From Bryobacteraceae bacterium (GTDB lineage: Bacteria; Acidobacteriota; Terriglobia; Bryobacterales; Bryobacteraceae), in contig DATNMW010000096.1 in the NCBI GenBank assembly GCA_035602155.1, positions 41,319-105,318 on the forward strand: a DNA stretch of 64,000 bases, written 5' to 3'. The position numbers were made by a program, and so were the translations under genes. This document shows positions 21,046-60,172 of this stretch, one piece after another. Each line of letters starts with the position of its first letter. The stretch's first letter is position 1. A model generated the notes under the pieces. It was given only the letters and a program-made list of their open reading frames with translations. It made no database searches and was not told the DNA's origin.

Positions 21046-21999
21046 CTACTGCGCCGCATCCTTCTTCTTCTCTTCTTCCTTCTTATCGTCTTTCTTTTCG
21101 TCCTTCTTATCGTCGACCGGATGCCGCGGCTTGCGCGCGACGGGCTTCGCACTCGCCATCTCGACGTATGTCCGCAGAATGCGATCCTTCTGCTCCGGAT
21201 CGAAAATCAACTCGCGGCGATTGCCGCTGCCCGAGAGCTTGAAGTAGCCGTCATTGGGATGCACGGCGTAAAGCATCGCGGCCATCGCCCATGACGGCGC
21301 ATCATACGGCATCGGCCGGTAGGCGCGGTAAGCATCCGCCACTGGATGCCCGCCGGCATACCCGAAATCCTTCTCGATGCTGTCCCCCGGAAACAGCAGC
21401 GCCTCGCCAATCTCGCGTCCCGCCGTCACAATCGGCGTTGGCCACGCCGCAAATACTTTTTGGGCCGCTGCGGTGTCCGCTTGCATGCCGGATTCCGCCA
21501 CGCAAAGCAGCCGCACCTTGCGGGCAACCCAATCCTTCGCGCCATACATGTCCAGCAACTTTGCCAGATCGGTGGCAGGACCGCTGAGCACCACGGCCGC
21601 ATTCTGATCGTACTGCGCCATCAGCACATTGCGGATCAGCGTGGCGCCGTCGGCGGTATCGTCGATGCTCTTGATTGAATTCGGGTTCGACGCGTTGCCA
21701 GCCACCTTGCCGAACATCGCCGATGCGGCAGGCGCCTTCCCATCCGCCAACCCGATCGGCATGAAGTGCATGAACATGGCCGCCGGACCGGTGGTGGCGC
21801 TGGCATAGAAGCGGCCCACTGCATCGCAGAATTGCGCCGCCTGCAGATCCGCGCTGCTCACGCAAATTGCCGCGATGCGCGCCTGGTCCTTGCCGTCGAA
21901 CCCATGCAGCATCGCCAGGGCCAGCACGTCGTCGATGCGGCCCATGGCGGAATCGAATACGATGCCTACGGGCGGTTTGGCCGCTATCGGAAACTGCAT
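21046..21999 (-). CDS. Nucleoside-hydrolase-like protein with lysine/glutamate-rich C-terminal tail
   Basis: 317-aa ORF. The N-terminal IVFDSAMGRIDDVLALAML resembles the DxDxxxDD pocket of IU-nucleoside hydrolases. The tail is KKDEKKDDKKEEEKKKD. Confidence 0.45.
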   Translation of the reverse strand: MQFPIAAKPPVGIVFDSAMGRIDDVLALAMLHGFDGKDQARIAAICVSSADLQAAQFCDAVGRFYASATTGPAAMFMHFMPIGLADGKAPAASAMFGKVAGNASNPNSIKSIDDTADGATLIRNVLMAQYDQNAAVVLSGPATDLAKLLDMYGAKDWVARKVRLLCVAESGMQADTAAAQKVFAAWPTPIVTAGREIGEALLFPGDSIEKDFGYAGGHPVADAYRAYRPMPYDAPSWAMAAMLYAVHPNDGYFKLSGSGNRRELIFDPEQKDRILRTYVEMASAKPVARKPRHPVDDKKDEKKDDKKEEEKKKDAAQ

Positions 22000-45915: not shown

Positions 45916-48351
45916 TTAGGATACCCGCAGCATCTGCGACGGATTAAGCTTCAGCACGCGCAGCGCAGGTATTACGCTGGCAACAGTAGCAACAAGCGCC
46001 AGAACGAAGGCAGCGGCAACAAATGTGCCGGCATCCGTCGTGGCGATGCCGAACACCAGGTGTTGCAACGCCTTCACCGACAGGCTCGCCAACAATCCAC
46101 CGATGGCAATGCCGATCCCCGAGAGACCAATGCCGGGAAGCGCGGCCTGGCGCATGATTTGCGCGATCGTCGCTCCCATTGCCAACCGGATGCCGAGCTC
46201 TCGTTGCCGCTCGGCCACGGAGTGTGCGATCAGGCCGTAGAGCCCGATGCTGGCCAGAACCAGCGCAAGCCCGGCAAGCGTCGATAGCAGGACCGCCTGG
46301 AACCGTTGCCGCCCCAGGGCGAGGGCGCGCACCTCATCCATGCTGCGGAAGCTGGCAATCGGCAATTGAGGATCGGCCTGCGCCACCGCCTTTTGGATCT
46401 GCGCGATGAGCCCGGCGCGGGATCCGGTAGCGCGCACAACCCAACTCGGAGAGAACCAGGTATGGACCATTTGCACGAAGCGGTCGTTGACCTGCATGGG
46501 AGAGACGAAAGCGGCCGGCTCCTCGGCAATCGGGCCGTTTCCGCCCCAACCGGCCTGCTGCGGAACGTCGCCGATCACGCCTACTATCTGGCGGGCGCTG
46601 CCGCCCACCGAAATGTAGCTGCCGAGCGCTTCGCGGTCTTGAAAATACTTCTTCGCAAACGCATCGTTGACCACCACAACCCGCTCCGTATTGGGGCCAT
46701 CGCTGTCCCGCAAAAGGCGCCCTCGGCGCAGCGGAATGCGGAGCGCCTGGAAATACCCGGGCGTGGCATAGGCGAGACTGGTCAGCATATGCTCCTTGCC
46801 GGCGTCTGGGCCGCTCATGAGCAGGAAATTGACGTTGAGGGGCCGCTCGTAGGGCAAGCCCAGCACCACGGCAGCCGCCTCCACGCTGCGCGATGCGCGT
46901 ATCTGGGAGAGGGTTTGCTCGAACAGCCGGTTCACTTGCTCCACGTGGCGGTAACTGGCATCCTGCAACGAGAACTGCGCGGTAATCACGTGGGTCGAAT
47001 CGAATCCGGGACGCAGGGAACTTTGTGCCACGAACGTCCGGAGCAATAGTCCAGCGCCGATCAGGAGCACGAAGCTGAGCGCCACTTCCAGAACCACGAG
47101 CGATTGCCGGAACCAGCGGTGCGAGGCGCCCACCACCCCGCGGCCGCCGGCCACGATCAGCGCGCGAAGATCCGTCCGGGTGGTTTGGATGGCGGGCGCC
47201 AAGCCGAACAGCAGACTGGTGAAGAGGGCCAAGCCCAACATGGCCAAGAGCACGCGGGCGTCCAGCGCGATTGCCTGCCGCAGATGCAGCGTCTCCTCGG
47301 CCCATTTCTTGGCCGCTTCGATCACCGCGTACCCCAGGGTGAGACCGGCCAGGCCGCCGCCTAGAGCCAGCAGAAAACTTTCGGCCATGAGCTGCCGGAT
47401 CACGGCAAAGCGCCCACTGCCGAGGGCCATGCGCACTGCAATATCGTGGGTGCGCCCGGCGGAGCGTACGATCATGAGAGTGGCAATATTAACGCATCCG
47501 ATCAACAAAACGGCGGCGACGGCGCCCCAAAGAACCAGCAGCGGCTGGCGCAGGTCGTTCGTCAGTCCCCGTTGCAAGGAGGCCAGCGTGAGGGCGGAAG
47601 AATAGTCGGCGGACTGGCTCGGCTGGAGCGCAATCGCTCCGGCCGCGGCCACTTGGGCGTTCGCTTGCGCCAGCGTATAGCCCGGCCGCAACCGGCCGAC
47701 GATCGCGTAGTTCTCTCCTTCGCCCTCGCCGGTACGCGCCGGCCGCAAAGGCGTCCATAGATCGGCCTGAACATCGGCCTGAAAAGCGGCAGGCATGACT
47801 CCGACGACTCCGTAGGTCTCCCCGCGCAACTGAATGGAGCGGCCTACCACCGACGGATCGCCATTGAACAAACGCTGCCAGAGGCGATAACTGAGGACCG
47901 CCACAGCGGGGCCTCCCGTGGTGTCTTCAGACGCCAGGAACTCCCGTCCGCGGAGCGGTGGCACGCCCAACACGCGAAAGAAACCGGATGAGACGCGCTG
48001 TTGGAGCACATAGCGCGCCTGGTTGCCGGTGCTAAGATTCACGCCGCTGGCGCTGTCCGAAAATGCGGCCGTGTCCAAAGCCGTCGCTTGATCGTGGACC
48101 AGGAACCACGTCGGGCCCGACTGCGCGTGCTGGTCACCCTCCGCGCCCTTGGCACGGTAATGGGTCACGATCTCCAACAGGCGTTCCGGCGCGGGGTAGG
48201 GCAGAGAGCGCAGCAGAACAGCATCCACGACGCTAAACAGGGCGGTATTGGCCGCGATGCAAAGTGCCAGCGTGAGTACGGCCGCCGCAGTGAAGAAAGG
48301 CGTTTTCCGCAGACTGCGCGCGCCAAGTTGTAAATCCCGCCACACCGGCAT
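45916..48351 (-). CDS. ADOP-family duplicated FtsX/MacB-type ABC transporter permease
   Basis: 811-aa ORF with the TM1 / MacB_PCD / FtsX block present twice. The N-terminus [39 protein letters not shown] is typical of the family. Confidence 0.9.
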
Positions 48352-48458
48352 ATCGCTTTCTCCTGTTCGCGCGTGCAGGCCGGCTGGCTTACGGGCAATA
48401 ACTTCCCGGCCCGCGCGTCGCCGGCTAACTAAGTACCGAATTCCGAAAGTTCGCCGAC

Positions 48459-51200
48459 TTATCCGGCCGAGCGGGCCAGTGTCCCTAGCTCCCCTGCTCT
48501 TATGGTACGCCTATCCGGCGCGCCGCGGCGGTCCCGCGGTATTCCATCCAAGGCGGCATCCAGCAGGAACGGAGCGGATGTGCCTGCAACGAGTCGATGC
48601 AGAAAGAGGGCGATCCCCGACGCTCCCGTGCCGAAGTCGCAACTGATGCGGACCAGTTCATGCCCGGGGAATGCGATACCCGTTGGGCGTTGTATCCCAA
48701 ACAATGCGATTCCGGACGCCACCTTTTCGGCTTTTTCCCGATAGGCCGCGCCATTCGCCTTGTCGAAGGACTCCATGTCCAGCAGGAAGTCGCCGAGTCC
48801 GGCCAAGCCGAAGAAGCGTCCAGGATAGATGGTATACTTTCGATCGCAATCCACCGCGATACGCCGCAGCACGGACGCATATTCATCGTCGGCCAGCACC
48901 TTCTGATAGCGGAGGAGCGCCGTTCCGACGCCCGCGCCACCCCAGCGCCAGTAGGGCACGCGCGTGCGGGACGCCTGCGAGATCTTCCAGGTGAGGCCGC
49001 CATCGGCTGTTTCTACTCCATTGCCGATGTCGAAGTCCATGCCTCCCTTGCCCACCTCCAGATAACGCTCCTGGCCGGTGAGCCCGTATAGATACAGGAG
49101 GAAGAGGGCGACGCCGCTGGCTCCATGGGCCAGTCCGTAGGCGGTATCGTCGTCCCACGGCCAGGAAAATCCCACGTCTTCCTCGTGCTTGGAGCGAATC
49201 AGGTAGTCGCCAGCCTCGGCGGCCTTCGCCAGGTGGAACTCGTCCTGCGTGTGAACGAACGCCTTCAATTGCGCCAACCCCCAACCAGCGGCGCCATTAT
49301 ACAGATCCGGCGAATCGAAGCGCAGCGGGTGATCGGCGCCGGCGCGCAGCAGTTCAAGCCCGCGTTCCTCGCGGCCGATCTCGAGCAGGGTCCAGCCAAT
49401 TCCCGATGTGCCGGCATACAGGCCGGGAGGGAAGGCTTCAGCGGTTATCTGCTTGCCGCAAATCCAATCCATAATCGCGGGCGAAACCGTACCCGTGATC
49501 TGTTTCATGCAATATGCCACGCCGCACGCCCCGTGCGCGAGGCTCAGCGGATTAGTGGCGTAGAGGGCCGGATCCGCGGGAAACAGGCGGTCTACGCGGT
49601 CGTAGCTCGCCGTCCCGGCCACATATTCCATGGCGCTTTCAGCCATTTTTCGCAACTCCCCGTAGACCGGAGCCTGGTGCGCCGGCGGCGCGGAGGCATG
49701 GCTGTCGCTTTCCAGAATCTCGATAACGCGCGCCGGGGTGATCCGGTCCGCCCGCTGTACGGCCATCAATCCTTGAATGCACCGAGGGATGCTCGCGGGC
49801 AAACCAAGATCGCGGCTCAGGGCTTCCAGAAAGCGTCCGCACGCCCCGGTATCCAGCGCCATCATCCCGTTGATCGGCATCAGCGCGGCGAGCATGAGCG
49901 CGCCGAGTCCGAAGTAGTCGTCCTCGCGCTCGGAATACGAGCTGGCCAAATCCGCCGAGGCGAAGCCGGGGGTGAACAGGGGAGTAGGGGGGTCGATGCC
50001 GATCTCATGAGCGGCTTCAAAATCGATGAACTTGACGTCCTCTCCGTCATTGATGACGATCAAGTTGTAATGGGAAATGTCGGTGAAGACGATACCGCGG
50101 CTGTGCAGAATTTCGAGGTTGCGTGCGATGCGCGAGAACACCCGGCAAAACCTATCCACGAATTCCTGGGCATCGGCGGCGGTCGGGGCGGTGCGCAATG
50201 CGAGGGAGTGCGCGCTGTTGTAGAATCGAAGCAACGCGCCGTCGATAAACTCTTCCACCAGATAGCAATGCTCCCAATCGCTGAAGAAATCGAGCGGCTG
50301 AGCGGCGATTCCGGTATCCGCCAAGCGCGTCAGAAGGCGGTGCTCCTTCTTGAGCAAGTCCACACCGTCGGCGCCGTTCGGATAGACATTCGAGAGCGGC
50401 CGCGCCTCTTTGATCACCACTTCCCGTCCAGTCTGGGTATCGGTGGCCAGATAGACGCCGCCACTGCTCGAGAACGCCAAGGCGGAGTTGACCACATAGC
50501 GTCCGTTTTTCAACGTGTTCTCGCCACTCTTTAACGTGTCTTCGCCGGCGCTATCGCCCGCGGCGCCGCCCACAGGATCCGGAGCCCACTCATGAGAGAC
50601 ACTGTAGGGCATACGCCGGTCCCGGATGGCCGTCCCGTCGGGCGCCTGGATGGTAAGTACGCGCTCGCCCCGCGAGTTCAGTGCATCGGTCCGCATGATC
50701 CCGCCGTACCGATAGTACAGGACCCGGCTGTCCTTGTAGCGCTTGTCCGAGAGAATGTACGGTCCGCGAAAGCCTACTAGAACGTTGTGCAACTCCTCAA
50801 TCAGCGAGAGAAAGGCCGGCGTGTCGGCGGGATAGATGGTGATAAACTTTCCGGCTCCGCTGCGCGGCCAACGCTTGGAGTTCTGCAGATAGACGATGGT
50901 CTTATCCAACGCGAACTTGAACGCCGTCTTGCGAGCCGTGAGGACCGGAATCACCGTGGCGAGTATGGCGGCGGCATTGGTAACCGTTGCGGAGATATGA
51001 ATCTTCCAACCCTGCCGCGGCGGGGCAATCGACGGCTCGGAGCAGTGAGACCAGATGCCGTTGCGCTCCATGCTCCAGCCTTCCGGCAAAAAACGCCGCG
51101 CGACTTCAAGCAGGCCGCCCGCATCGGGTTCGTAGCAGTCCATGGGTTCGTAGAAATCCCTGGAGCCGAATAAGTACTGAAAGACCTGAATATTAGACAT
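48459..51200 (-). CDS. lanKC: Class III lanthionine synthetase (LanKC: phospho-Ser/Thr lyase - kinase - zinc-less LanC-like cyclase)
   Basis: 913-aa ORF. Lyase-domain motifs WKIHISAT and GKFITIYP. Kinase motifs GGVYLATD...[25 protein letters not shown] and KFIDFEAA. The C-terminal LanC-like repeats are [38 protein letters not shown] and GLAGLGDF, without the WCxG / CHG zinc ligands. Confidence 0.9.
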
Positions 51201-51321
51201 TTTGAAATAATTCCGTTTTACCGTGCATCCTCACTGGTTTCCATGGGAGAGCGAACCCCAGAATCGCGCCTTTGCCTTTGTGGAAAGGCCCGCGCCCTTC
51301 ACTCGCATCCGCTGGAGCAGA

Positions 51322-51365
51322 CCCGGCGGCGGGAGCTCGCTGGTTTGCTCCCGTCTGCCTCCGGG
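51322..51365 (-). terminator. Conserved GC-rich hairpin 24 nt downstream of lanA1 (candidate attenuator or processing structure)
   Basis: Minus-strand cccgg-aggcagac-GGGAGC-aaaccagcga-GCTCCC-gccg-ccggg. It is homologous to the structure after lanA2, with a compensatory stem change. Confidence 0.5.
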
Positions 51366-51388
51366 CCGATTCCTCATCGCGGTTGTCG

Positions 51389-51553
51389 TCAGTAACCGGC
51401 CGCGATATAACCGCCCATGGCCGCGAAACAGGCCGCCGCGCTGTTGGTGGAGCACGCACAATTGTGGGCGCTCGACGTGCTGTTGCCTACCTCTGCCATT
51501 GGACCGCTGTTCTGGTCGTCCGGCAACATTTGAAGTGCTAATACTCGATTCAT
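51389..51553 (-). CDS. lanA1: Class III lanthipeptide precursor peptide 1 (54 aa)
   Basis: MNRVLALQMLPDDQNSGPMAEVGNSTSSAHNCACSTNSAAACFAAMGGYIAAGY. RBS GGAGAA lies 5 nt upstream of the ATG. Leader VLALQ motif. The core has two S-x2-S-x3-C motifs. Confidence 0.85.
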   Translation of the reverse strand: MNRVLALQMLPDDQNSGPMAEVGNSTSSAHNCACSTNSAAACFAAMGGYIAAGY

Positions 51554-51583
51554 AATCGTTCTCCTTAGTCTTATCTGGGAAGA

Positions 51584-51627
51584 CCCGCCGGCGGGGGCAC
51601 ATTGTGCCGCCCCCGTCTGCTTCCGGG
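51584..51627 (-). terminator. Conserved GC-rich hairpin 24 nt downstream of lanA2
   Basis: Minus-strand cccgg-aagcagac-GGGGGC-ggcacaatgt-GCCCCC-gccggcggg. Same position and architecture as the hairpin after lanA1. Confidence 0.5.
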
Positions 51628-51651
51628 CCAATTTGCGGCTAACGGCCGTCG

Positions 51652-51816
51652 TTAATAACCGGCGGCGATGAAGCCGCCCATGGCCGCAAAACATGCCGCG
51701 GCGCTGTTGGTGGAGCAAGCGCAATTGTGGTCGCTCGACGTGCTGTTGGCCAGCTCCGCCATTGGGCCGCTGTTCTGGTCGTCCGCCAACATCTGAAGTG
51801 CTAATACTCGATTCAT
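51652..51816 (-). CDS. lanA2: Class III lanthipeptide precursor peptide 2 (54 aa)
   Basis: MNRVLALQMLADDQNSGPMAELANSTSSDHNCACSTNSAAACFAAMGGFIAAGY. RBS GGAGAA. Differs from lanA1 at 5 of 54 residues. The tandem unit period is 263 nt. Confidence 0.85.
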   Translation of the reverse strand: MNRVLALQMLADDQNSGPMAELANSTSSDHNCACSTNSAAACFAAMGGFIAAGY

Positions 51817-51842
51817 AATAGTTCTCCTTGTTTCTTCTTTTA

Positions 51843-51860
51843 CAGACTTAATTAAGTCTG
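51843..51860. promoter_or_regulatory. Perfect 18-bp palindrome upstream of lanA2
   Basis: cagacttaattaagtctg lies 27 nt upstream of the lanA2 start codon, in an AT-rich patch. Confidence 0.4.
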
Positions 51861-51900
51861 CTGAGTTAGTTATAACACCGCCAGAGGATGTTTTCACGGG

Positions 51901-51936
51901 TTGTTGCTTAGCAGTTTCGGCTGTTTCGCGAATTAC
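51901..51936 (+). repeat. Direct repeat copy 1 of a ~36-nt motif in the divergent lan intergenic region
   Basis: ttgttgcttagcagtttcggctgtttCGcgaatTact. The first 26 nt are identical to copy 2. Both copies are preceded ~23-28 nt upstream by ttataaca. Confidence 0.7.
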
Positions 51937-52330
51937 TCACGCGGGAGGCATTTATCAGGATACGGCGCAATATAGAGTAATATCCAAAAAGGTTTCGCTT
52001 TTGTTGTGCATCTTAAGTTATACTTACTCGAAACCGTAGAGACTTACAGTCGCGCAGATACGCGCCGGCAAAAGGAGGTCCCGAATCGCGACAGGTAACC
52101 TTGAACCAGGGCGGAACCACAAAAGCCTTCGCATTCCGCGCCGCATCCGGAAGAAGCCTTCGGCCCACGGCCTGGAAGCCGGGTCAAACCGCGGCAAGTT
52201 CCAGTGAATTGCTTCGTGGATCTCTTAAATCGCTTTGGGGTGTTGAATCCATTCGGCTTAAGCCGCTCCGACAGCGTACAACGCGCGCGGCTGTGTCCCT
52301 TTATTATTATAACAATCCCGAAACTTGCGC

Positions 52331-52366
52331 CTTGTTGCTTAGCAGTTTCGGCTGTTTAACGAATAC
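52331..52366 (+). repeat. Direct repeat copy 2 of the ~36-nt motif, ~85-120 nt upstream of the ABC exporter gene
   Basis: ttgttgcttagcagtttcggctgtttAAcgaat-act. Candidate promoter or regulator-binding site. Confidence 0.7.
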
Positions 52367-52483
52367 TGTAAGGTATTGCACAGAAACGGCCGCGGCCGGC
52401 ATGCTACCATTGTGACGTAAATAACAGTACCCAAACATCTTGATTGGCGAGTGCCAGCCTCGACGTTTTCGAGTGTTCCGACA

Positions 52484-54259
52484 ATGCCTGCGCACCGCTG
52501 GTTACTTAAAACTCTTCGGCCATTTCGCGCCAGTCAGTTGTTGATTACCTTCTCCCTGCTTTCGGCGGGACTGCTATCCTCGGTCGATCCTTTGATAATC
52601 AAATGGCTCATCGATCACGGCTTCCGCGGCGCTCGGGTGCGGTCTATTTTGATGGCGTTAGGTCTCTTTGTGCTGGCCTATTCAGTGCGGTTGACCTTAC
52701 TAATGATAGGTAACATGGCTGTCGCTGTAACCTGTCAGCGCGTGATGCTGCGTTTACGCCTGCAGCTTGCCACAAAGCTGACCCAGTGCGGGGCGGGGTA
52801 TTTCGACCGCCAACCGGTGGGCGATTTGGTTTACCGGCTGGAGGGCGACATCGAACAGGTCGGACATCTGGCCACGGACGTGCTCCCTTCGCTGCTGAGA
52901 GTGGCGGCCAGCGCCCTGTTAGTGGCCGGCATCATGGTGAGTATCGATCCGATGCTGGCTTGCGTGACACTTCCTTTCTTCCCGCTCTTTCTGGTGTTGC
53001 GCGCCCGCTTCCGGCCGAAGCTTGAGCGGGCGGCGGAAGCCACGCGAGACGTGGCCGGCCAGCGAAGCAGCTATTTGACCGAGTGGCTGGCAGGGGTCGT
53101 GCAGATACAGTTGCTGGGAGCGGAACGAACCTTCCTGCGCAAGCTCTTCGCGCTGTGCAGCAGTACGATCCGCGCCGCGGTAAGTCAGCGGAGAACGGAA
53201 CTGCTGTATGCCATCGGATCGATGGGCCTTATCGCGCTGGCCACAATCGCGGTTTTGGGCGCGGGTGCGGAGCGGGTTCTGACGCATGCGCTGACTCTGG
53301 GTGGGTATGTGGCGTTCTACACCTACCTGACCCGGCTGTTCGAGGCGCTGAGTGCCAGCGTAGAGACATATTGGCAGTTGAAGCGGGCTACCGGCAGCGT
53401 TCGCCGGCTGATGGAGCTGGAAGACGTGGACATCCCGATCGTGGACGTCAAGTCGGCTCCTTCGCTGCCCGCAGGCGAGGTCGGCGGCCTGGCGTGCACC
53501 GGAGTCGATTTCGGTTATCCGGCGGGACGAATCGTGATTCAGGGTGTATCCCTTCAGGTAAACCGCGGAGATCGCGTGGCCATAGTGGGCCGTAGCGGAA
53601 GCGGGAAGAGCACGCTGGCGAAGTTGCTGGTCCGGCTGTACGATGTAAGCGGAGGCGCGATTCTCCTCGACGGCGAGGACATCAGGGATCTGCGGCTGCG
53701 GAGTGTCCGCAGTTCGATCGCACTGGTGTCGCAGAACCCCACGTTGTTCGCCGGCACGCTGGCGGAGAATGCGCGGCTGGGAAGCCCGGACGCATCCCTC
53801 GAGGATATGAACCGGCTGGCAGTCCTGACGTGTTTCGATGAAGTCCTGCAAAGATTCCCGGACGGTTGGCGGCACGTGCTCGGGCCGGCCGGGGCCGGCT
53901 TGTCGGGCGGCGAGAAGAAGCGGCTGGCGCTGCTTCGGGGGCTCCTGCTGAATCGGGAGGTTCTGGTTCTGGACGAAGTGACCTCCGAGCTGGATCCGGC
54001 CGTCGAAAGGGTCCTGCTTTCCCACCTGGACGAATACGCCCATGACAAGGCCATCGTGCTGATCACACATCGCACCGCGGCGGCCCTTTGGGCCGACCGC
54101 ATCATCGCTCTCCAGGATGGGCGGGTGACGCGAGTGTGGCGACGTTCCGAGCTGGACGAGGACGACCCGCAACTCGAGCGGAAGCTTTGGGGCGAGGACC
54201 TGGCGATCCCCACGGAAGAGGCCTACCGGCCTGAAAGCGAACTGTGCTCAATTTTGTAA
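52484..54259 (+). CDS. ABC exporter, fused permease and ATPase (MdlB/MsbA-like), no peptidase domain
   Basis: The track ORF starts at 52451 (GTG); ATG at 52484. Six predicted TM helices, then Walker A GRSGSGKST, signature LSGGEKKRLAL and Walker B LVLDEVTSELD. Confidence 0.85.
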   Translation: MPAHRWLLKTLRPFRASQLLITFSLLSAGLLSSVDPLIIKWLIDHGFRGARVRSILMALGLFVLAYSVRLTLLMIGNMAVAVTCQRVMLRLRLQLATKLTQCGAGYFDRQPVGDLVYRLEGDIEQVGHLATDVLPSLLRVAASALLVAGIMVSIDPMLACVTLPFFPLFLVLRARFRPKLERAAEATRDVAGQRSSYLTEWLAGVVQIQLLGAERTFLRKLFALCSSTIRAAVSQRRTELLYAIGSMGLIALATIAVLGAGAERVLTHALTLGGYVAFYTYLTRLFEALSASVETYWQLKRATGSVRRLMELEDVDIPIVDVKSAPSLPAGEVGGLACTGVDFGYPAGRIVIQGVSLQVNRGDRVAIVGRSGSGKSTLAKLLVRLYDVSGGAILLDGEDIRDLRLRSVRSSIALVSQNPTLFAGTLAENARLGSPDASLEDMNRLAVLTCFDEVLQRFPDGWRHVLGPAGAGLSGGEKKRLALLRGLLLNREVLVLDEVTSELDPAVERVLLSHLDEYAHDKAIVLITHRTAAALWADRIIALQDGRVTRVWRRSELDEDDPQLERKLWGEDLAIPTEEAYRPESELCSIL

Positions 54260-54687
54260 CGGTCTTGCGCGTATTGCCCGGCGGCGCTTTGCTACTCAAG
54301 CATTCGGAGGATTCCCGGATCCAGAAAGTGCTGGCGCTGATCGCGGATGCGCCCGTACAGGAATGTGCTGGACTGGCGGGACAAGTACACCTCAGCACGA
54401 ACCGTCTGGTGCACTTATTCAGGCATGAGACCGGAGTGGGCTTAGGCTTGGTCCTGAGGGACGCCCGGCTGCGGTATTCGGCCCACCTCCTGTCTTCAGG
54501 GAAGGAGCCGGAAAAGGAGATCGCCTTTCTGTCCGGCTATCGGCACTTATCCAGCTTCGTCCGGGCCTTCACGCTACGGTACTTCGAGTCTCCCCGTTCC
54601 TACCGGCGCAATCCGCTTGTGCTGGTCATGTCCCCGCTCGGCGAGGGAGTCGTTGCGGAGGCCCTGGCGGTCGCCGCGCACGCCTAG
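54244..54687 (+). CDS. Short AraC-family HTH transcriptional regulator (DNA-binding domain only)
   Basis: IQKVLALIADAPVQECAGLAGQVHLSTNRLVHLFRHETGVG......IAFLSGYRHLSSFVRAFTLRYFESPRSYRR. It overlaps the ABC gene end by 16 nt. The start codon is uncertain. Confidence 0.7.
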   Translation: MLNFVTVLRVLPGGALLLKHSEDSRIQKVLALIADAPVQECAGLAGQVHLSTNRLVHLFRHETGVGLGLVLRDARLRYSAHLLSSGKEPEKEIAFLSGYRHLSSFVRAFTLRYFESPRSYRRNPLVLVMSPLGEGVVAEALAVAAHA

Positions 54688-54710
54688 CGCGCGCCCGAGC
54701 GAAGCACACC

Positions 54711-56090
54711 ATGAGCGAACAAACCTGCTCTATTTACGGGGACGAAGCCGCCAACCATCCCGCGCCGGCCGGCAGGCTCCAAGTGCCCGTGGAGTATTTT
54801 CGGTTGCCCAACGGCCTGGCGGTTGCGCTCTCTCTCGACTGCAGCACTCCGGTGGCGGCTGTTACCGTCTATTATGGCGTCGGATTTCGCCGTGAGCCGC
54901 TGCATCGCGCCGGCTTTGCCCACCTTTTCGAGCACCTGATGTTTCAGGGGTCGCCCAGCCTCCCCAGATCGGAATTCATTCGACTTATCCACGAGTGCGG
55001 CGGCACCGTCAATGGGAGTACGCGCTTCGATTTCACCAGCTTCTATGAAGTGGTCCCGTCAAATGCCCTCCGTACGGTGTTGTGGGCCGAAGCAGACCGC
55101 ATGCGCGGCCTGGCTCTGACGCCGGAGAGCCTGGCCAACCAACAATCGGTCGTGTGCGCCGAAGTGGGCGCCAACATTCACAATCAGCCCTATGGCGGAT
55201 TTCCCTGGTTCGATGTACCTCAAACCGCGAACGTCAATCCGCACAATGCTCACAACTTTTACGGCGAGATTGAAGATATCACCGCCGCCACCCTGACGGA
55301 GGCGGAGGAATTCTTTCGGGAGTTTTACCGTCCCAACAACGCCGCCCTCGCGATCGTGGGCAACTTCGATCCGGCGGCGGTTCGGGAATGGATCGCCGGA
55401 TATTTCGGATCGATCCCGTCCGCGGCGGCGCCGGTTCCCTTCGACGTGAGCGAGCCGCGTCAACTGCGGGAGAGGTACGGGCGGAGGCTGGATCGTCTGG
55501 CGCCCAGTCCCGCCCTCGCCATCGCGTACCACATGCCGGACAGAAACACGGATGAGTACTTCGCGATGGGAGTGCTGGATCATCTTTTGCTTCAGGGAGG
55601 CGACAGCCTGTTTCAAAAGGAGCTGGTCAATCGCCGCGGGATGACCGATCTGGTTCGCGGCGGAATCAATATTCTGGGAACCATGTTCAACTACAACGGC
55701 CCCATGCTATGGACGGTCCACATGTTCCACGATCGCGACGTGCGCGCGGATGACATTCTGGAGGCCGTCGATGGGGTGGTGGCGGGCTTGACGGACGGGG
55801 AGGTTTGCCGGGAAACGCTTGATCGTGCTCTGGTCAAAATGCGTTCCACGCTCTACGACCAGATCGAATCCTCCCACGGCCTGGGTCTCGCCGATATGCT
55901 CGCGGCATTCGCGCTGTTCGACGGCTCTCCGGAACGGATCAATTCGTTGGACGCGCGCTTCCGGTCGGTCACGCCCGCATTGTTGCGCAGGACGGCTGCG
56001 GAGTGCCTTCGCAAAACCAATCGAACGGTCCTCGAAGTCGAGGCGCCGGCGGGTTCGGCTGTTAGACCAATGGGAAAGGAATGCAACTAA
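54711..56090 (+). CDS. M16-family (pitrilysin/insulinase-like) zinc peptidase, catalytic subunit
   Basis: 459-aa ORF with the inverted zinc motif HxxEH in GFAHLFEHLMFQGS and a downstream glutamate region (EFIRLIHECGGTVNGST). Confidence 0.85.
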   Translation: MSEQTCSIYGDEAANHPAPAGRLQVPVEYFRLPNGLAVALSLDCSTPVAAVTVYYGVGFRREPLHRAGFAHLFEHLMFQGSPSLPRSEFIRLIHECGGTVNGSTRFDFTSFYEVVPSNALRTVLWAEADRMRGLALTPESLANQQSVVCAEVGANIHNQPYGGFPWFDVPQTANVNPHNAHNFYGEIEDITAATLTEAEEFFREFYRPNNAALAIVGNFDPAAVREWIAGYFGSIPSAAAPVPFDVSEPRQLRERYGRRLDRLAPSPALAIAYHMPDRNTDEYFAMGVLDHLLLQGGDSLFQKELVNRRGMTDLVRGGINILGTMFNYNGPMLWTVHMFHDRDVRADDILEAVDGVVAGLTDGEVCRETLDRALVKMRSTLYDQIESSHGLGLADMLAAFALFDGSPERINSLDARFRSVTPALLRRTAAECLRKTNRTVLEVEAPAGSAVRPMGKECN

Positions 56091-57472
56091 TGAGCGCCCT
56101 CGCCTTCATACCCTCGCCGCCGGCCCGCCCGCCATTGCAGACCGTCTCTTGGGACCGGTTTGCGTTACCGGACCCGCAGTCGGTGCGCCTGTCCAACGGG
56201 CTCTCCGTCACGATGATTCAATGGGGTACGGTACCCAAGGTGCTTGTCAGCATGGTCCTGCGCGCGGGCCGGGCCGATGAGGGCAGGGAAAGACTGTGGC
56301 TTCGACGCCTGTTGGGCATGTGGATGATCGAAGGCACCCACAACCGCGGTGCGGATGCGGTGGCCGCCCAGGCGGCCACCATGGGTGGATCGATCGGACT
56401 GAGTTTCGGAGAAGATCTCATGGAGGTCTCCGCGGACGTGCTGACCGAGTGGGGGCCTGCGCTGGTCGAGTTGATGGCGGATGTCCTCCAGCAACCATTG
56501 TTTCCCGAGCGGGAGAGCGCCCGGTTGAAGCGCGCTCTGGTGCGCAAGCTCGAGATCCAGCAAAGCCAGGCTCGCGCCGTGGCGCATGAGGCGATTCGCC
56601 AGGTGCTCTATCCCGGCGGCTCCTACGGCTGTATTTTCCCGACCTCCGGCGCGCTGAATTCCTATGGCCGCACCGAGGTGATGGATTACTATGAATCGTG
56701 TTTCGTGGCGCGGCGCACGCACGTATGCGTGATTGGCCGCTTTGATGCCGCAAAGATGCTGGATGCGATTGAACGCAATCTCGGCGGATGGCGATCCGGT
56801 ACGGCACCCTTCGTGGAAAGGCCCGCGGAGTCGAAGGAGCCGGTTTGCCGGACCATCGACCGCCCAGGCTCAACCCAATCCACCGTGCTGATCGGTGTGC
56901 CGGTCGCGCCTCCAGGCAGTCCCGGCCGAGTCCCGCTGGAACTCGCGAATGCGATGCTCGGCGGCTCCTTCAGCTCTCGCATAACCTCGAATATCCGTGA
57001 AGACAAGGGCTACACCTACACGTGCGGTAGCAGCCTTCCCACCTGCTGCAGTACCTCTTTCTGGCTGGAAGTAGCCGATGTGGAACCGGGCGCCACGCGA
57101 GAGGCAATTCGGCTGATCCTGCATGAGGTGGACCGGTTCTGCCAGGAGCCTCCAACCGCGGACGAATTGATGCGCGCCAAAGCGTATACGTCCGGCGCGC
57201 TAGCGATCTCGATGTCGTCCCGGTCGGGACTGCTGAGCTGCCTGAAGTTCGACGATCTTTACCATCTTGGCTGGAGGTATCCGTCCACGTATCTGGCGCA
57301 GATCCGCGACGCGGATGTGCAGGACGTGTGCGCGGCTGCGGCACGCTATCTGAGGAGCGACAGGATGTCGACTGTCATCGTTGCGGATCTGAAGGAACTG
57401 GGGGAAGCGCCGTACATGCCGGCATCGCCACGATCGGTAGATGACGCGGGCCGTGCGGGCAATTTCACATAG
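56081..57472 (+). CDS. M16-family peptidase-like protein, non-catalytic subunit (HxxEH lost)
   Basis: 463-aa ORF. The equivalent position reads LRRLLGMWMIEGTHNRG, with no His-x-x-Glu-His. It overlaps the upstream M16 gene by 10 nt (ATGCAACTAATGA), suggesting translational coupling. Confidence 0.8.
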   Translation: MQLMSALAFIPSPPARPPLQTVSWDRFALPDPQSVRLSNGLSVTMIQWGTVPKVLVSMVLRAGRADEGRERLWLRRLLGMWMIEGTHNRGADAVAAQAATMGGSIGLSFGEDLMEVSADVLTEWGPALVELMADVLQQPLFPERESARLKRALVRKLEIQQSQARAVAHEAIRQVLYPGGSYGCIFPTSGALNSYGRTEVMDYYESCFVARRTHVCVIGRFDAAKMLDAIERNLGGWRSGTAPFVERPAESKEPVCRTIDRPGSTQSTVLIGVPVAPPGSPGRVPLELANAMLGGSFSSRITSNIREDKGYTYTCGSSLPTCCSTSFWLEVADVEPGATREAIRLILHEVDRFCQEPPTADELMRAKAYTSGALAISMSSRSGLLSCLKFDDLYHLGWRYPSTYLAQIRDADVQDVCAAAARYLRSDRMSTVIVADLKELGEAPYMPASPRSVDDAGRAGNFT

Positions 57473-57628
57473 TTATTCCATGGCCGAACACCCGACCGGC
57501 GCCCTCGTCGGCCTTTTGCGGAAAGCCTTGGTTTTCCGAACAAAAGAGCGGGTCCGCAGACCGGGGGGCTGACCCATAAGCGCTAACCTAACGATTTTAT
57601 GCCTTGGCCATGAATGGGCGGAACTGTT

Positions 57629-57863
57629 CTAAGCGATCACGGACGGGGGCGGCGCAGCGGTATGAAGCACTTCGTAAGGAAAGCGGCTCCGGATGTAGTG
57701 GTTGAAGTAGGCTCCCTTAGAGCCGGCGCGCAACAGATCGTGGTAGGTCCGGCGGGGAACGCCGGCGTACTGAAATGCGGCTCCGTCGCGGAAACTGCAC
57801 TTGAAGGATTGCTTTCCGGCGCTCGTAAGCCACTTGGGCCAGTGACGAAGATCGCACTGCCAT
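57629..57863 (-). pseudogene. KTSC-domain protein, 1-nt frameshift
   Basis: MAVRSSSLAQVAYERRKAILQVQF then shifts frame to RDGAAFQYAGVPRRTYHDLLRAGSKGAYFNHYIRSRFPYEVL. The total length of 235 nt is not a multiple of 3. Confidence 0.6.
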
Positions 57864-57920
57864 AGGATTCAGTTGCAATAGTTTCAAGATCGCGACAGGC
57901 ATTTTGTTGAACTCCGTAGT

Positions 57921-58290
57921 TCAATTCAGGCTTCTGTCCTGGACCGTTCGCTTGCGATGGCCCTCGGCCAATGCGGCAGCCAAGCGATTCCAACCATGCA
58001 GCACTTGGGTCGGCGGCAGGCTTGGTTCAATCGCATTCTGAATCTGGTGCAGCGCCAAACCGAACTCGCGCCATTCACTGCGTTGAAGCGTATCCCGGGA
58101 GAACGTAACCCCAGGGGAAAGTTCCCGTCCGACTCGAACTGACTTCTGTGTCAGTAAGGCCACGAGCAGCTTTCCGTATAGCCAAGCCCGCGAACTCTGG
58201 TCGTCGTATTTGGGCAGGTGCCCGAGTTGTGCCAGGCTCTTGAACCGTTTGAAGGTCAACTCTATTTGCCATCTCACCCGATACCACTCT
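57921..58290 (-). mobile_element. C-terminal remnant of an IS4-family DDE transposase
   Basis: ...REWYRVRWQIELTFKRFKSLAQLGHL... is the Y-x2-R-x3-E-x6-K signature region. The 5-prime part of the gene is absent. The fragment abuts the VWA pseudogene at ~58290. Confidence 0.7.
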
Positions 58291-59275
58291 CTAAGACTGG
58301 CCCCGCGGCCGGTACCCCGGGCGCGAGCGCACCAAGTACTTCTTCCCCACATCGGTCACAATCTCGACGGGAATCTTGCGGAGGCCTTCGCTCGGATTGG
58401 GCTGCGGATAGTAAGTCACCGTGTAGGAGTTACCTAAATCCTCGCGGATGAATTCAAAAGCCTCCACCTGCTTCTGCCAGATCTTGGCCCAATAGGCTTT
58501 GCCGCCGGTGCGCGTGGCGATGTGCCGGAAGACGCCGCTCGAAATGGAGTAGTGGGTCAATTTGCTTTGTGGGGCAGGTTGGCAACCTGCGGGCCGATTG
58601 TCAATCGGCCCAGTTTGCGCCGATTTCCAATCGGCGCGCAGGAGCATCCTGTCTTCATGGCCCTGCGGGCCACCAAATGCGATCAAAACCCTTGGAGGGC
58701 GGCAGGATTGCCCAATGCCACTTAGTTTTCGAGCGCTGTGCGAAACCAAAACATTTTCAAGCACTTATGTCTCTCCGCAGAAATAGGGTGACGCTCGGAC
58801 ACTTTGGCGAACCCCACGCCAATCGCTTGCTTCAATCGGGGTAGCCGGGATCCGCGGGTGCGCAATGACTTGCACTCATACTCAAGAAATAAGTGGCATT
58901 GGGCAGGATTGCCCGCCCTCCAAGGGTGGCTTCGACGGTGCCCCGCAAACTGCAACTGACCCACTACCCGAAACGGGGTCCTTGTTGACCTCGTTAGTGG
59001 AGATCATGTAGATGGGAATGCCTTCGTCCTCGGCCACCGCGCGGACGTCGTCGGGCGCGACCATGCTGGCATTGTCCGGCCCGTTCGAGAAGACGATCGC
59101 CACCTTGCGGCCACGCACTTTGGCCGCGTCGCGCAGCGTCAGCAGCAAGGTGTTGTAGACCGCCGTATCGTCTCCTGCCACGGATTTGCGCAACCCGCCG
59201 ATGGCATCGCCGCGGTCGCGCGCGAGCCTGGCAGCCCGGGAAAGACTGCGGCTGAGGAAGTTGACCGCTGTTCCA
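58291..59275 (-). pseudogene. Diverged duplicate of the 3-prime half of the VWA gene (copy of ~62266..62830), interrupted by a 421-bp element
   Basis: Collinear by eye with the intact gene: ...AIVFSNGPDNASMVAPDDVRAVAEDEGIPIYMISTNEVNKDP... and ...FRHIATRTGGKAYWAKIWQKQVEAFEFIREDLGNSYTVTYYPQPNPSEGLRKIPVEIVTDVGKKYLVRSRPGYRPRG. There is no 5-prime half. Confidence 0.85.
58548..58968. mobile_element. MITE-like non-autonomous element (421 bp) with terminal inverted repeats and 8-bp target duplication
   Basis: The left end is aGTAGTGGGTCAATTTGC and the right end is GCAACTGACCCACTACc. The flanks are cgaaatgg / cgaaacgg. The uninterrupted paralog at 62514..62530 reads ...gctcgaaatgggatcc.... There is no ORF of transposase size. 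An internal 36-nt inverted pair lies at 58689..58724 and 58890..58925. Confidence 0.75.
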
Positions 59276-59482
59276 GTGTTGGACGCGGCGAACTGGCATT
59301 GACGCTAGGACCGGTGAACCGAGGTGTAAGGGCGGACGCTACCTTTATAGGCGGACTGCTACTGGCCGGCGGGTGCCTGGCGGTGGTCGGAGTCTAGAGC
59401 GAATGGATGCCAGTGCGCGCGGCGATGCGGGCCATCGGGAACTGCCGACGGCCTAAAAGGCGACAGAATGGGCGGGAGGGTT

Positions 59483-60172
59483 ATGCCAATCGTCCTAACC
59501 GAAATACCGGCAGCGGCTGTTCCCCACGTTCCGCCCCGAAAGCGATGGACTCGCGCCGAGTGCGCAACTCTGGAGGCGTCCGGTCTCCTGGATCAGGAAA
59601 GCCTGGAGCTTGTGGAAGGGGAGTTGATCGGCAAAACGGAGAAGAAACGCCCGCACGTGGACTCCTTCACCCTGCTACAGGAGTGGTTGGCGCAAGTCTT
59701 TGGATTTCGCTCAGTGAACGTAGAGGCGCCCATTGACGTGGCCCCTGAGGACAATCCTACCAACGAACCGGTGCCCGATCTTATCGTCCTACCGCAAGAG
59801 CGGCCGCGTTTCACATCCAACCCGAGGGCGCTGGATTTGCGGCTCGGAGTTGAGATAGCCGATACCAGCCTTAGCTTCGATCTCAAGGTTAAAGTCCCGC
59901 TTTACGCGAGGGCCGGGGTGCGCGAATATTGGGTCCTGGACGTGGCTGGCCACCGGTTGCTGGTGCACAGGAATCCGCAATCCGTAACGTATATGGACGT
60001 GGCCGCTTATAGCGCACGAGAGCGTGTCGCCGCTTGCTCCGCCGCGGGAACAGTTCCGCGTGGCGGATGCCTTCCAAGTCCTATAGCGGCGGTCGCCCGT
60101 ATCCGCCGTTGCCCCCGAAACGCGAACGCTAAACAGCACCGATCTGAAGCCAAATCCAATCGCGCGGCATGA
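59483..60172 (+). pseudogene. Uma2-family (DUF820) endonuclease, C-terminus altered by a 2-nt deletion
   Basis: MPIVLTEIPAAAVPHVPPRKRWTRAECATLEASGLLDQESLELVEGELI...PDLIVL...EIADTSLSFDLKVKVPLYARAGVREYWVLDV. After ~60014 the frame departs from copy 2 (agcgcacgag versus agcgagcacgag) and reads through to 60172. Confidence 0.7.

Follow-up and report, generated by a model that had tools for sequence, protein, structure and literature searches.

Organization of the gene cluster

The window, that is the whole 64-kb stretch of DNA that was analysed, contains a cluster of uninterrupted genes between positions 45916 and 57472, which start with a ribosome-binding site or by translational coupling. The 913-aa synthetase, the two 54-codon precursors and the divergent plus-strand genes that the first-pass annotation had described are all present where it placed them. 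The features are as follows:

45916-48351, minus strand: ADOP permease, 811 aa, duplicated MacB/FtsX type; TIGR03434 743 bits
48459-51200, minus strand: lanKC, 913 aa, class III synthetase with lyase, kinase and metal-independent cyclase domains
51319-51371, minus strand: GC-rich hairpin, 18 nt past the lanA2 stop
51389-51553, minus strand: lanA2, 54 codons, class III precursor MNRVLALQMLPDDQNSGPMAEVGNSTSSAHNCACSTNSAAACFAAMGGYIAAGY; NF038154 (lanthi_III_a) 26.4 bits
51581-51633, minus strand: GC-rich hairpin past the lanA1 stop, copy 2 of the duplicated unit; repeat family D2
51652-51816, minus strand: lanA1, 54 codons, class III precursor MNRVLALQMLADDQNSGPMAELANSTSSDHNCACSTNSAAACFAAMGGFIAAGY; NF038154 23.6 bits
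51901-51933, minus strand: copy A of the conserved cis element, reading ATTCGCGAAACAGCCGAAACTGCTAAGCAACAA on the lanA strand; repeat D3
52332-52364, minus strand: copy B of the conserved cis element, with 94% identity to copy A; TTATAAT comes next on the minus strand
52451-54259, plus strand: ABC half-transporter, 602 aa, TMD and NBD; ABC_membrane 5e-33, ABC_tran 3e-28
54244-54687, plus strand: short AraC regulator, 147 aa; HTH_18 4e-15
54711-56090, plus strand: M16a, 459 aa, M16B catalytic subunit with H71-L-F-E-H75; Peptidase_M16 and M16_C
56081-57472, plus strand: M16b, 463 aa, M16B non-catalytic subunit, PttP1/YmfF-like

Synthetase and precursors

The lanKC product scores 749.8 bits (E 4.5e-225) against the NCBI curated class III profile NF038151, whose cutoff is 575 bits, and Pfam finds RamC_N (1e-58), Pkinase (2e-12) and LANC_like (2e-21) domains in that order; the lyase and kinase homology that the first-pass annotation attributed to this protein is thus found, and the class III model is passed. 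The same protein is present on six contigs, and it is about 30-38% identical to actinobacterial homologues. Its best solved relatives are ThurKC (8sap, E about 4e-71 to 5e-71; PMC10604976), TherKC (9wj0; PMC13504147) and CurKC (8car); ThurKC and TherKC have the same three-domain architecture with a metal-free cyclase, and they align with LanKC in two stretches only. The lyase and kinase residues of ThurKC have been validated by mutation (PMC10604976), and all of the validated residues in this pair are kept: alignment to ThurKC matches K66, H68, K95, K109, K118, D152, R164 and R196 as well as K264, E286 and D393-F-E395. The catalytic residues D374 and N379 are present too, and LanKC has every residue for phosphorylation of Ser/Thr by the kinase and elimination of phosphate to Dha/Dhb by the lyase. 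All three zinc ligands are absent, the former ligand positions being R752, F796 and F797. The ThurKC cyclisation residue D771 corresponds to F797, and its cyclisation chemistry is therefore not directly transferable.

A AAGGAGAA ribosome-binding site precedes each of lanA1 and lanA2 (the latter is already an annotated gene in the public record), and both precursors are above the 22-bit cutoff of NF038154. Each has a V-L-A-L-Q recognition helix in its leader and a core with S25-x2-S28-x3-C32 followed by S35-x2-S38-x3-C42. The two proteins are 91% identical; their genes differ by 11 synonymous and 5 non-synonymous codon changes, with every core Ser, Thr and Cys and the leader motif unchanged, and by this pattern of substitution both copies are under purifying selection. 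They are the sole matches in six frames of the window to a motif finder that looks for an LxLQ leader and S/T-x2-S/T-x2-5-C within a small ORF. In 62 of 80 species-representative genomes, LanKC homologues have LxLQ-leader peptides beside them, and the positive controls of this survey, known labyrinthopeptin-like and SapB-like precursors, were recovered (the former at Actinomadura locus L075). The closest relatives, and Duganella too, have the same core family, S-T-S/C-S-x3-C-x-C-S-T/S-x-S-x1-3-C with a hydrophobic tail. [quoted passage not shown]

Transport, regulatory and peptidase genes

The ABC half-transporter, which has an alternative ATG start at 52484 (591 aa) that is the start in the public gene call, has no C39 peptidase domain by Pfam search and is proposed to be the inner-membrane exporter of the mature peptide. 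Its orthologues adjoining the closest LanKC relatives are 46-48% identical. The AraC gene overlaps it by 16 nt and encodes a two-HTH DNA-binding domain alone, an architecture like that of MarA/SoxS, with weak matches to RamA/SoxS/MarA models; orthologues of 122-131 aa (28-40% identity) lie beside LanKC in L085, L086 and L087. ABC, AraC and ADOP orthologues all adjoin LanKCs of 50-51% identity.

M16b overlaps M16a by 10 nt and is translationally coupled to it. The second-best solved match of M16a is 3amj_C, a "zinc peptidase active subunit" (3e-29), and the best of M16b is 3amj_B, a "zinc peptidase inactive subunit" (5e-26, residues 39-436); M16b is without HxxEH and keeps the R-x6-Y region (REDKGYTY). 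The two are a heterodimer-type M16B peptidase pair, of which M16a, without a signal peptide or TM helix in a TM scan, is by analogy proposed to be a PttP2/YmfH-like leader peptidase subunit. M16 genes are found beside LanKC in L007, L012, L063, L064 and L086; in L007 and L012 this position is taken by fused two-module M16 proteins of 931 and 918 aa, respectively. A DDE transposase fragment (57921-58352) lies directly after M16b.

The ADOP gene shares the strand of lanKC, begins 108 nt past the lanKC stop and has its own ribosome-binding site; no terminator was detected in this gap, and the gene is probably co-transcribed with lanKC. Its product exceeds the TIGR03434 cutoff of 622 bits, contains two MacB_PCD and two FtsX Pfam domains, and has eight TM helices and two periplasmic domains predicted by TM scan; it lacks an ATPase domain, and no adjacent gene supplies one. 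We propose that it is an envelope export or self-protection component. Across 86 loci, the density of ADOP-like genes per 100 kb is 4.5 at 0-2 kb from LanKC and 3.6 at 2-4 kb, as against 0-0.7 at 4-10 kb, an enrichment of about 10-fold within 4 kb, and such a gene is present in all 14 of the Acidobacteriota-labelled LanKC loci; the cluster-linked ADOPs have low mutual identity (24-36%). The cluster had been called complete: its genes are intact, but the limits first drawn for it were too narrow and left out the ADOP permease, and it continues to 45916.

Hairpins and a shared upstream element

The hairpin at 51319-51371 (fold -31.2 kcal/mol, z = -1.4) belongs to a 263-bp tandem duplication, and its inner stem differs from that of the other copy at 51581-51633 (-32.5 kcal/mol, z = -0.35) and still pairs. 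Neither is more stable than shuffled sequence, and no U-tract was found at the former, which is possibly an attenuator or mRNA stabiliser between the precursor and synthetase genes.

In copy A the TGCTAAGCAA core starts 97 nt ahead of the lanA1 ATG, with GTGAAA-17-TATAAC after it, and copy B precedes the divergent ABC start by 87-120 nt; the 367 nt between the two copies contain no ORF and no unusual RNA structure. The exact 26-nt core occurs twice in the window, where no occurrence is expected. Upstream of lanA the present cluster has two copies of a conserved element of about 25 nt, and each of two related metagenomic clusters has one: TGCTAAKMAA on the lanA strand, common to these and the present cluster, lies 114 nt (L085) and 120 nt (L086) before lanA, and there are only five, scattered, matches elsewhere among 87 loci. 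By its conservation and position the element of about 25-33 nt is probably the operator of the short AraC regulator; copy A is proposed as the operator of this putative activator at lanA, and copy B as a second one for a distal lanA promoter, the ABC operon or both.

Proposed pathway and nature of the product

Taken as sequence, the cluster is a genuine and intact class III lanthipeptide system, encoding a ribosomal, thioether-bridged peptide. We consider it very probable that 45916-57472 is an 11.6-kb cluster of this kind in a Bryobacteraceae-like, soil-type Acidobacteriota genome and works as follows. LanKC would bind the leader and dehydrate four or more of the seven Ser/Thr in the core. 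It would then build two ring systems, of lanthionine or labionin type, one closing on C32 (or C34) and the other on C42; the third conserved Cys, from the C-x-C pair, would form a further ring or stay free. A cytoplasmic M16a/M16b heterodimer, by analogy with PttP1/PttP2, would remove the leader from the modified peptide, and the ABC half-transporter would export the mature product through the inner membrane. The MacB-like ADOP permease, with an ATPase encoded elsewhere, may either protect the producer or drive the peptide out of the periplasm or outer leaflet, and the AraC regulator would switch on the divergent promoters through the two element copies.

The central reading of the first-pass annotation, an apparently intact class III cluster in an Acidobacteriota genome, is upheld by the LanKC and precursor models and by the AcnA of the window (79-91% identical to Bryobacteraceae/Terriglobia proteins). 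That the 913-aa enzyme is instead a class IV LanL, or a generic fusion of a Ser/Thr kinase with a LanC-like domain, is extremely improbable: it does reach 559.5 bits on the class IV model NF038150, because the lyase and kinase domains are common to both classes, but this is below the cutoff of 650 while the class III cutoff is exceeded, the zinc-ligand positions are R, F and F, and the precursors have a class III leader and motifs. A newly acquired, decaying or silent remnant without product is very unlikely, given the seven intact genes with their ribosome-binding sites or coupled starts, the full catalytic residue set, the selection on the duplicated precursors and the identical LanKC on six contigs; the adjoining transposase fragment, a GC3 of 0.73-0.76 in the cluster genes, slightly below the 0.78-0.82 of housekeeping genes, and a best LanKC relative of just 51% identity where AcnA relatives reach 90-94% (one on a 7.3-Mb contig) would fit it. 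It is also improbable, if a little less so, that lanA1, lanA2 and lanKC alone make up the system and have nothing to do with the neighbouring ABC-AraC-M16-M16 operon and ADOP gene (which might, for instance, be a peptide-processing/export module of its own and one ADOP paralogue among many). Acidobacteria do have multiple copies of ADOP genes (the window contains a decayed one at about 10.1-11.0 kb), an M16 gene is within 10 kb of LanKC in just five of the first 80 loci, and class III clusters often rely on proteases encoded elsewhere (PMC8960859). Against this, the same parts occur in differing orders in the closest LanKC relatives (L085, L086, L087 and L082) and in one tight gene string in Duganella L007 and Acidobacteriaceae L012, ADOP genes are enriched near LanKC, and a common cis element links both promoter regions.

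As to the product, we favour, with middling confidence, an antimicrobial with the ADOP permease as export or immunity device. MacB/FtsX-type permeases are commonly tied to peptide-antibiotic export or resistance, and no developmental context is known in Bryobacteraceae; both points weigh against a surface-active, morphogen-like or signalling peptide of the SapB/AmfS kind, with ABC and ADOP for secretion only. The latter is possible but rather unlikely; it draws on a weak resemblance of the precursors to RamS/SapB (PF19402 E = 0.009; NF033212 E = 0.003, below cutoff), on the two S-x2-S-x3-C motifs, as in SapB (loci L071-L080), and on the Ala/Gly-rich hydrophobic C-terminal tail, which would make an amphiphile, and antibacterial activity is low for many class III peptides.

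Relationship to known systems

The labyrinthopeptins (LabKC, Actinomadura namibiensis) share with the present precursors the LxLQ leader, the two consecutive S-x2-S-x3-C motifs and the extra Cys just before the second motif (C-A-C-S-T here, C-C-S-T in labyrinthopeptin). Labyrinthopeptins have a fourth, disulfide-forming Cys, whereas here there are three conserved Cys only and a 12-residue hydrophobic tail after the last. The Streptomyces SapB/RamCSAB system likewise has a LanKC (RamC), a double S-x2-S-x3-C precursor and ABC exporters, but it is without M16, ADOP and AraC genes, its precursor similarity is below family cutoffs, and its precursor gene is downstream of ramC (L071-L080), unlike lanA, which is upstream of lanKC.

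The paenithopeptin (ptt) and bacinapeptin (bcn) clusters of Paenibacillus/Bacillus likewise combine LanKC, multiple LanA and a transporter with a heterodimer-type M16B pair, one subunit with HxxEH and the other with R/Y, for which Sph2681/Sph2682 (3amj) served as the model, and neither their peptidases nor M16a/M16b have signal peptides (PMC8960859). PttP1/PttP2, which combine endo- and aminopeptidase action, are proven class III leader peptidases (Xue et al. 2022, PMC8960859). These are Firmicutes, whereas the present cluster is from Acidobacteriota; the LanA leaders are without the Q-A-(A/V)-(D/E) motif that marks cleavage in PttP1/PttP2 substrates (PMC8960859), M16a and M16b are distant from the Bacillus YmfF/YmfH-type families (scores below cutoffs), and an ADOP permease and short AraC regulator are reported for neither ptt nor bcn.

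Uncharacterised clusters with the same accessory genes in varied orders, and LanKCs 43-51% identical to the present one, are found in Duganella sp. Root336D2 (L007) and on metagenomic contigs L085, L086, L082 and L087. Duganella has the same precursor core family (NSTSS-x3-C-x-C-ST-x-S-x3-C-F), but its M16 is fused, a LuxR regulator takes the place of AraC, and there is no ADOP. The accessory gene set had been called unusual; it is not, since M16B pairs are published class III leader peptidases (PMC8960859) and the ABC, short AraC, M16 and ADOP genes recur in the closest relatives. The cluster had also been put forward as a candidate novel system; it is an uncharacterised example of a well-known type and no new kind of system. 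No characterised class III lanthipeptide product from Acidobacteriota was found in the literature accessible to search. Many Acidobacteriota MAG proteins already carry a class III LanKC annotation at NCBI, and routine annotation would pick up this cluster.

Gene content and borders

The class III lanthipeptide gene cluster is 11.6 kb in size and self-contained, and comprises seven genes and two precursors. An ORF scan found every reading frame named in the first-pass annotation in its place, and independent gene calls on the 84.9-kb metagenome scaffold that contains the window give the same genes, both small peptides included. That annotation had missed two things which we now add, a repeated cis element and the gene for a permease of the ADOP type (Acidobacterial duplicated orphan permease, TIGR03434).

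Features of the cluster (window positions)
45916-48351, minus strand: ADOP, permease gene
48459-51200, minus strand: lanKC, class III synthetase gene, 913 aa (ORF scan)
51389-51553, minus strand: lanA2, precursor gene of 54 codons, upstream of lanKC
51652-51816, minus strand: lanA1, precursor gene of 54 codons, upstream of lanKC
52451-54259, plus strand: ABC, half-transporter gene, 602 aa; the public gene call starts at the ATG at 52484
54244-54687, plus strand: AraC, short AraC-type regulator gene, 147 aa, with a 16-nt overlap with ABC
54711-56090, plus strand: M16a, M16B peptidase gene (ORF scan)
56081-57472, plus strand: M16b, its partner, with a 10-nt overlap with M16a

The ribosome-binding site AAGGAGAA precedes both lanA1 and lanA2. 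ADOP is counted as part of the cluster because of its enrichment and recurrence beside LanKC in other loci, and the left border is therefore placed at 45916, outside which a 6-phosphogluconate-dehydrogenase-like gene runs convergently. On the right the cluster ends with M16b, and an IS remnant marks this edge. The remnant, a C-terminal fragment of a DDE_Tnp_1 transposase (57921-58352 on the minus strand, also 57600-58000; E = 4e-7), lies about 450 nt past the end of M16b, and a Uma2-family endonuclease gene is found beyond it at 59468-60172. An Rfam search over 45-59 kb at E <= 1 gave zero matches. Elsewhere in the window, large ORFs at 6512-9412 (plus strand, 966 aa), 23338-25605 (minus strand, 755 aa) and 22001-23341 (minus strand, 446 aa) are without an NCBIfam match (E <= 1e-10).

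The LanKC synthetase

The first-pass identification of the 913-aa protein as a LanKC is borne out by profile searches, which find both lyase and kinase homology. Pfam gives the domain order RamC_N (1e-58), Pkinase (2e-12) and LANC_like (2e-21), and the protein passes the NCBI curated class III LanKC equivalog NF038151 with 749.8 bits against a cutoff of 575. Assignment to class IV was rejected, as the score with the class IV LanL model NF038150, 559.5 bits, is under the cutoff of 650. The best solved relatives are ThurKC (8sap, 4e-71), TherKC (9wj0) and CurKC (8car, 3e-48, with an end-to-end alignment).

Residues were assigned from the ThurKC alignment, read against the mutational map of PMC10604976. 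The catalytic and phosphate-binding lyase residues of ThurKC, K65, H67, K94, K108, K117, D152, R163 and R191 (PMC10604976), have counterparts in LanKC (K66, H68, K95, K109, K118, D152, R164 and R196) that are invariant or nearly so among 26 homologues. The kinase domain contains K264 (the beta3 Lys), E286 (the alphaC Glu), D374 and N379 of the catalytic loop, and a DFE motif, D393-F394-E395. This set of residues predicts a catalytically competent enzyme.

Missing zinc ligands in the LanC-like cyclase separate class III from class IV enzymes. As judged from the sequence alignment, the LanKC cyclase lacks the Cys-Cys-His ligands, with R752, F796 and F797 at the positions of ThurKC S726, F770 and D771 (C284, C330 and H331 of NisC); together with the class III residue and model matches, this argues that LanKC is a class III synthetase of the metal-independent type. 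ThurKC needs D771 for cyclisation (PMC10604976), whereas LanKC, like its clade consensus, has Phe at this position.

The precursor peptides

Both precursors pass NF038154, the class III lanthipeptide model, with 26.4 and 23.6 bits (cutoff 22). Each has the leader motif V4-L5-A6-L7-Q8, which fits (I/L/V)-L-x-L-Q and in which L5, L7 and Q8 are invariant across an alignment of 10 related precursors, and the core motifs S25-T-S-S28-x3-C32 and S35-T-N-S38-A-A-A-C42, which fit S-x2-S-x3-5-C; C34, a third Cys, and a hydrophobic tail of 12 residues are further features of both. The genes belong to a 263-bp tandem duplication, which also takes in the downstream GC-rich hairpin. The copies differ by 11 synonymous and 5 non-synonymous codon changes, and the leader motif and the core Ser, Thr and Cys residues are untouched, so both are under purifying selection.

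A precursor motif finder, which recovered labyrinthopeptin-like precursors of Actinomadura and SapB-like precursors of Streptomyces as positive controls, found only lanA1 and lanA2 in the six frames of the whole window. The objection foreseen in the first-pass annotation, that the peptides might not be conserved next to LanKC, falls away because the same finder places such peptides beside LanKC in 62 of the 80 species-representative genomes with LanKC homologues. A search of 5.8 billion protein clusters, which needs shared 5-mers, returned the 54-aa precursor itself alone; relatives that this search did not give were found by a motif scan of LanKC loci. Related cores occur in L007 (Duganella sp. 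Root336D2) and in L082-L086, and the consensus for the family reads S-T-S/C-S-x3-C-x-C-S-T/S-x-S-x1-3-C, with a hydrophobic tail behind it. The family thus has three Cys per two canonical ring motifs, and the C-x-C pair (residues 32-34), just ahead of the second S-T-x-S, is kept in all these relatives. Gammaproteobacterial LanKC loci (Arsukibacterium, Ferrimonas, Pleionea) contain 4-6 tandem near-identical precursor genes with W-S-x-x-S-x-x-C cores (L064 9195-9855, L067 9006-9784 and L050 8843-9791).

The hairpins after the two lanA genes fold at -31 and -32 kcal/mol, no better than shuffled sequence, and an intrinsic-terminator scan gave none on the minus strand and fewer matches than in shuffles; an attenuator role for them is only an analogy.

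The M16 peptidase pair and the ABC transporter

M16a has an HxxEH motif (HLFEH, residues 71-75), and 3amj_C, the active subunit of the Sphingomonas M16B heterodimer, is among its best solved matches (3e-29). M16b has no HxxEH, retains the R-x6-Y region (REDKGYTY) and is best matched by the inactive subunit 3amj_B (5e-26). No signal peptide or TM helix was found in either protein. The first-pass annotation considered the accessory gene set unusual, a view that does not hold for the M16 pair because published leader peptidases have the same architecture. PttP1/PttP2 of Paenibacillus and Bcn-gP1/gP2 are class III leader peptidases that act solely on LanKC-modified precursors (Xue et al., PMC8960859), and M16a/M16b have exactly their combination of an HxxEH subunit with an R/Y subunit. 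The substrates of PttP1/PttP2 carry a Q-A-(A/V)-(D/E) cleavage motif (PMC8960859), but this motif is absent from both leaders here, which read ...QNSGPMAE(L/V)(A/G)N; by analogy, M16a/M16b may act like PttP1/PttP2 with a different specificity. Their relationship to the Bacillus YmfF/YmfH-type families is remote as judged by the NCBIfam models, on which they score below cutoff (YfmF_fam 51 bits, cutoff 285; YfmH_fam 26 bits, cutoff 250).

ABC is a TMD-NBD half-transporter with ABC_membrane and ABC_tran as its only Pfam domains. It contains no C39 peptidase domain and is not a LanT(P)-type bifunctional transporter; its matches to peptidase-containing families begin past their peptidase region and are far under cutoff.

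The ADOP permease

ADOP encodes an 811-aa duplicated MacB/FtsX permease that scores 743.4 bits with TIGR03434 (cutoff 622.3). The protein has two MacB_PCD and two FtsX domains, no ATPase domain, and 8 TM segments arranged 1+3/1+3. The gene lies on the same strand as lanKC, starts 108 nt past its stop codon and is preceded by a ribosome-binding site of its own; the intervening stretch showed no terminator. Across 86 LanKC loci of other genomes and metagenomes, the density of ADOP-like genes is 4.5 per 100 kb within 0-2 kb of LanKC and 3.6 at 2-4 kb, and falls to 0.35 (4-6 kb), 0.74 (6-8 kb) and 0 (8-10 kb) per 100 kb farther off. An ADOP gene is present in 14 of 14 loci labelled Acidobacteriota, and also in loci of Luteibacter, Lysobacteraceae, Rhodanobacteraceae and Longimicrobiaceae. 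The literature searched gave nothing on ADOP function. Four ADOP-like tblastn pieces of 36-58 aa (43-52% identity, partial coverage of the protein) at 10075-10988 on the minus strand suggest a decayed ADOP pseudogene, some 35 kb away from the intact gene.

The AraC-type regulator and a repeated element

The 147-aa AraC protein has HTH_18 at residues 44-122, that is, a two-HTH domain with no ligand or dimerisation domain. It is like MarA, SoxS and RamA in architecture alone, as its scores with their equivalogs are far under cutoff. Orthologues of 122-131 aa with 28-40% identity occur in the metagenomic contigs L085, L086 and L087.

The 667-nt divergent region contains a 33-nt element twice, at 51901-51933 and 52332-52364; the copies are 94% identical, and a 26-nt core is exact in both (chance expectation 0 matches). 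Each copy is followed on the lanA strand by a -10-like box read by eye, TTATAAC or TTATAAT, and a sigma-70 consensus scan of the region gave no strong promoter. The element core TGCTAAKMAA begins 97 nt ahead of the lanA1 ATG; in L085 and L086 it recurs on the lanA strand, 114 and 120 nt upstream of lanA. Five further matches in 87 loci show the scatter expected by chance. From this position and conservation, the simplest reading is that AraC binds the element and would activate lanA and the divergent operon.

Between the element copies lie 367 nt that lack a convincing ORF and any unusual structure (z = 0.08); on these grounds and the motif finder result we rejected the presence there of a third, hidden precursor or of a structured RNA leader. 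Copy B (52332-52364) has the near-consensus TTATAAT on the lanA strand, followed by about 370 nt (51934-52331) with no convincing ORF; it may drive a long-leader lanA transcript or serve the divergent ABC promoter.

Proposed pathway

The identities of LanKC, the precursors, the M16B pair, the ABC exporter, the ADOP permease and the AraC-type protein are assigned from their sequences, and a pathway can be proposed from them. AraC would activate transcription via the repeated element, and LanKC would bind the leader, dehydrate core Ser/Thr and make two lanthionine or labionin systems. The M16 heterodimer would trim the leader in the cytoplasm, the ABC exporter would pass the peptide through the inner membrane, and ADOP, with an ATPase encoded elsewhere, might handle it in the envelope for export or immunity. 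The hairpin after each lanA could tune the ratio of precursor to enzyme transcript, a weak step because the hairpins are no more stable than shuffled sequence.

A broader reading, which we hold tentatively and would not quite favour, is that such clusters form a distinct diderm-specific class III subtype in which ADOP permeases are lanthipeptide export or immunity devices. Its precursors may be defined by S-T-S-S-x3-C-x-C-S-T-x-S-x3-C plus a hydrophobic tail, its other parts may be a short AraC activator acting at a dedicated, conserved operator and a clustered M16B leader peptidase, and its ADOP/MacB-like permease may serve envelope handling, either export past the outer membrane or self-protection. 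If true, this diderm-specific subtype would for the first time put the ADOP paralogues of Acidobacteria, a very large family of unknown function, into a functional context, and the third conserved Cys could lead to a ring topology new to class III peptides.

Relatives, origin and novelty

Proteins named Bryobacteraceae or Terriglobia share 79-91% identity with the AcnA encoded at 11522-14209 of the window, which upholds the Acidobacteriota assignment made at first pass. For LanKC, more than 1000 homologues were found at E <= 1e-20, and hundreds of related loci lie in public genomes. The class III LanKC annotation is given to many of the source-named homologues; these come from MAGs of Thermoanaerobaculia, Gemmatimonadaceae, Longimicrobiales and Ca. 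Angelobacter, and from Lysobacter and Marilutibacter genomes. A single-protein LanKC scan of species-representative genomes gave no close relative, and an alignment-based scan was needed. The best full-length LanKC match is 51% identical, whereas AcnA has many relatives at 90-94%, one of them on a 7.3-Mb contig. GC3 of the cluster genes (48459-57472) is 0.73-0.76 versus 0.81-0.82 for the AcnA, RNase R and GGDEF-EAL genes (33-16562). The low LanKC identity, the flanking transposase fragment and the slightly lower GC3 point to a sporadic distribution of the cluster and possibly to its acquisition; for horizontal acquisition, the GC3 values and the LanKC/AcnA identity contrast are hints.

The nearest LanKC relatives contain the same kit in different gene orders, so the accessory gene set is not rare.

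Gene orders in the nearest relatives (all metagenomic contigs)
L085: ABC, short AraC, lanA, lanKC, ADOP
L086: M16, M16, short AraC, lanA, lanKC, ADOP
L087: short AraC, lanKC, ABC
L082: AraC, two lanA, ABC, lanKC

The Duganella locus has two lanA, lanKC, ABC, a fused 931-aa M16 and a LuxR regulator, and its precursors have the core NSTSS-x3-C-A-C-ST-x-S-x3-C-F in common with lanA1/lanA2.

The first-pass annotation ranked the cluster as the best candidate for a novel system in the window. Every component is from a known family, class III logic including M16B leader peptidases is already published, and standard annotation (NCBIfam, antiSMASH-type rules) recognises the cluster, which as a genomic feature is ordinary. 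The literature searched contained no characterised class III lanthipeptide from Acidobacteria/Acidobacteriota, and gave nothing informative on class III peptides of Lysobacter, Duganella, Massilia, xanthomonads or myxobacteria; this is thus an uncharacterised cluster of a known type. A characterised product from this abundant, hard-to-culture soil phylum would therefore add new chemistry from a source so far untapped. The leader peptidase is often the missing piece in heterologous expression of class III peptides (PMC8960859), and this cluster, small, self-contained and with a predicted leader peptidase of its own, is a practical expression target. The new leads are two and modest, the ADOP linkage and the putative AraC operator, and bear on diderm peptide export or tolerance and on the role of ADOP proteins.

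One further tightly packed class III cluster was seen in an uncultured Acidobacteriaceae MAG.

L012 (CAVQHS010000015.1), 7429-21479: ABC, three lanA, lanKC, two GT4 glycosyltransferases, PhyH dioxygenase, fused M16, ADOP

Its product may be a glycosylated or hydroxylated class III lanthipeptide.
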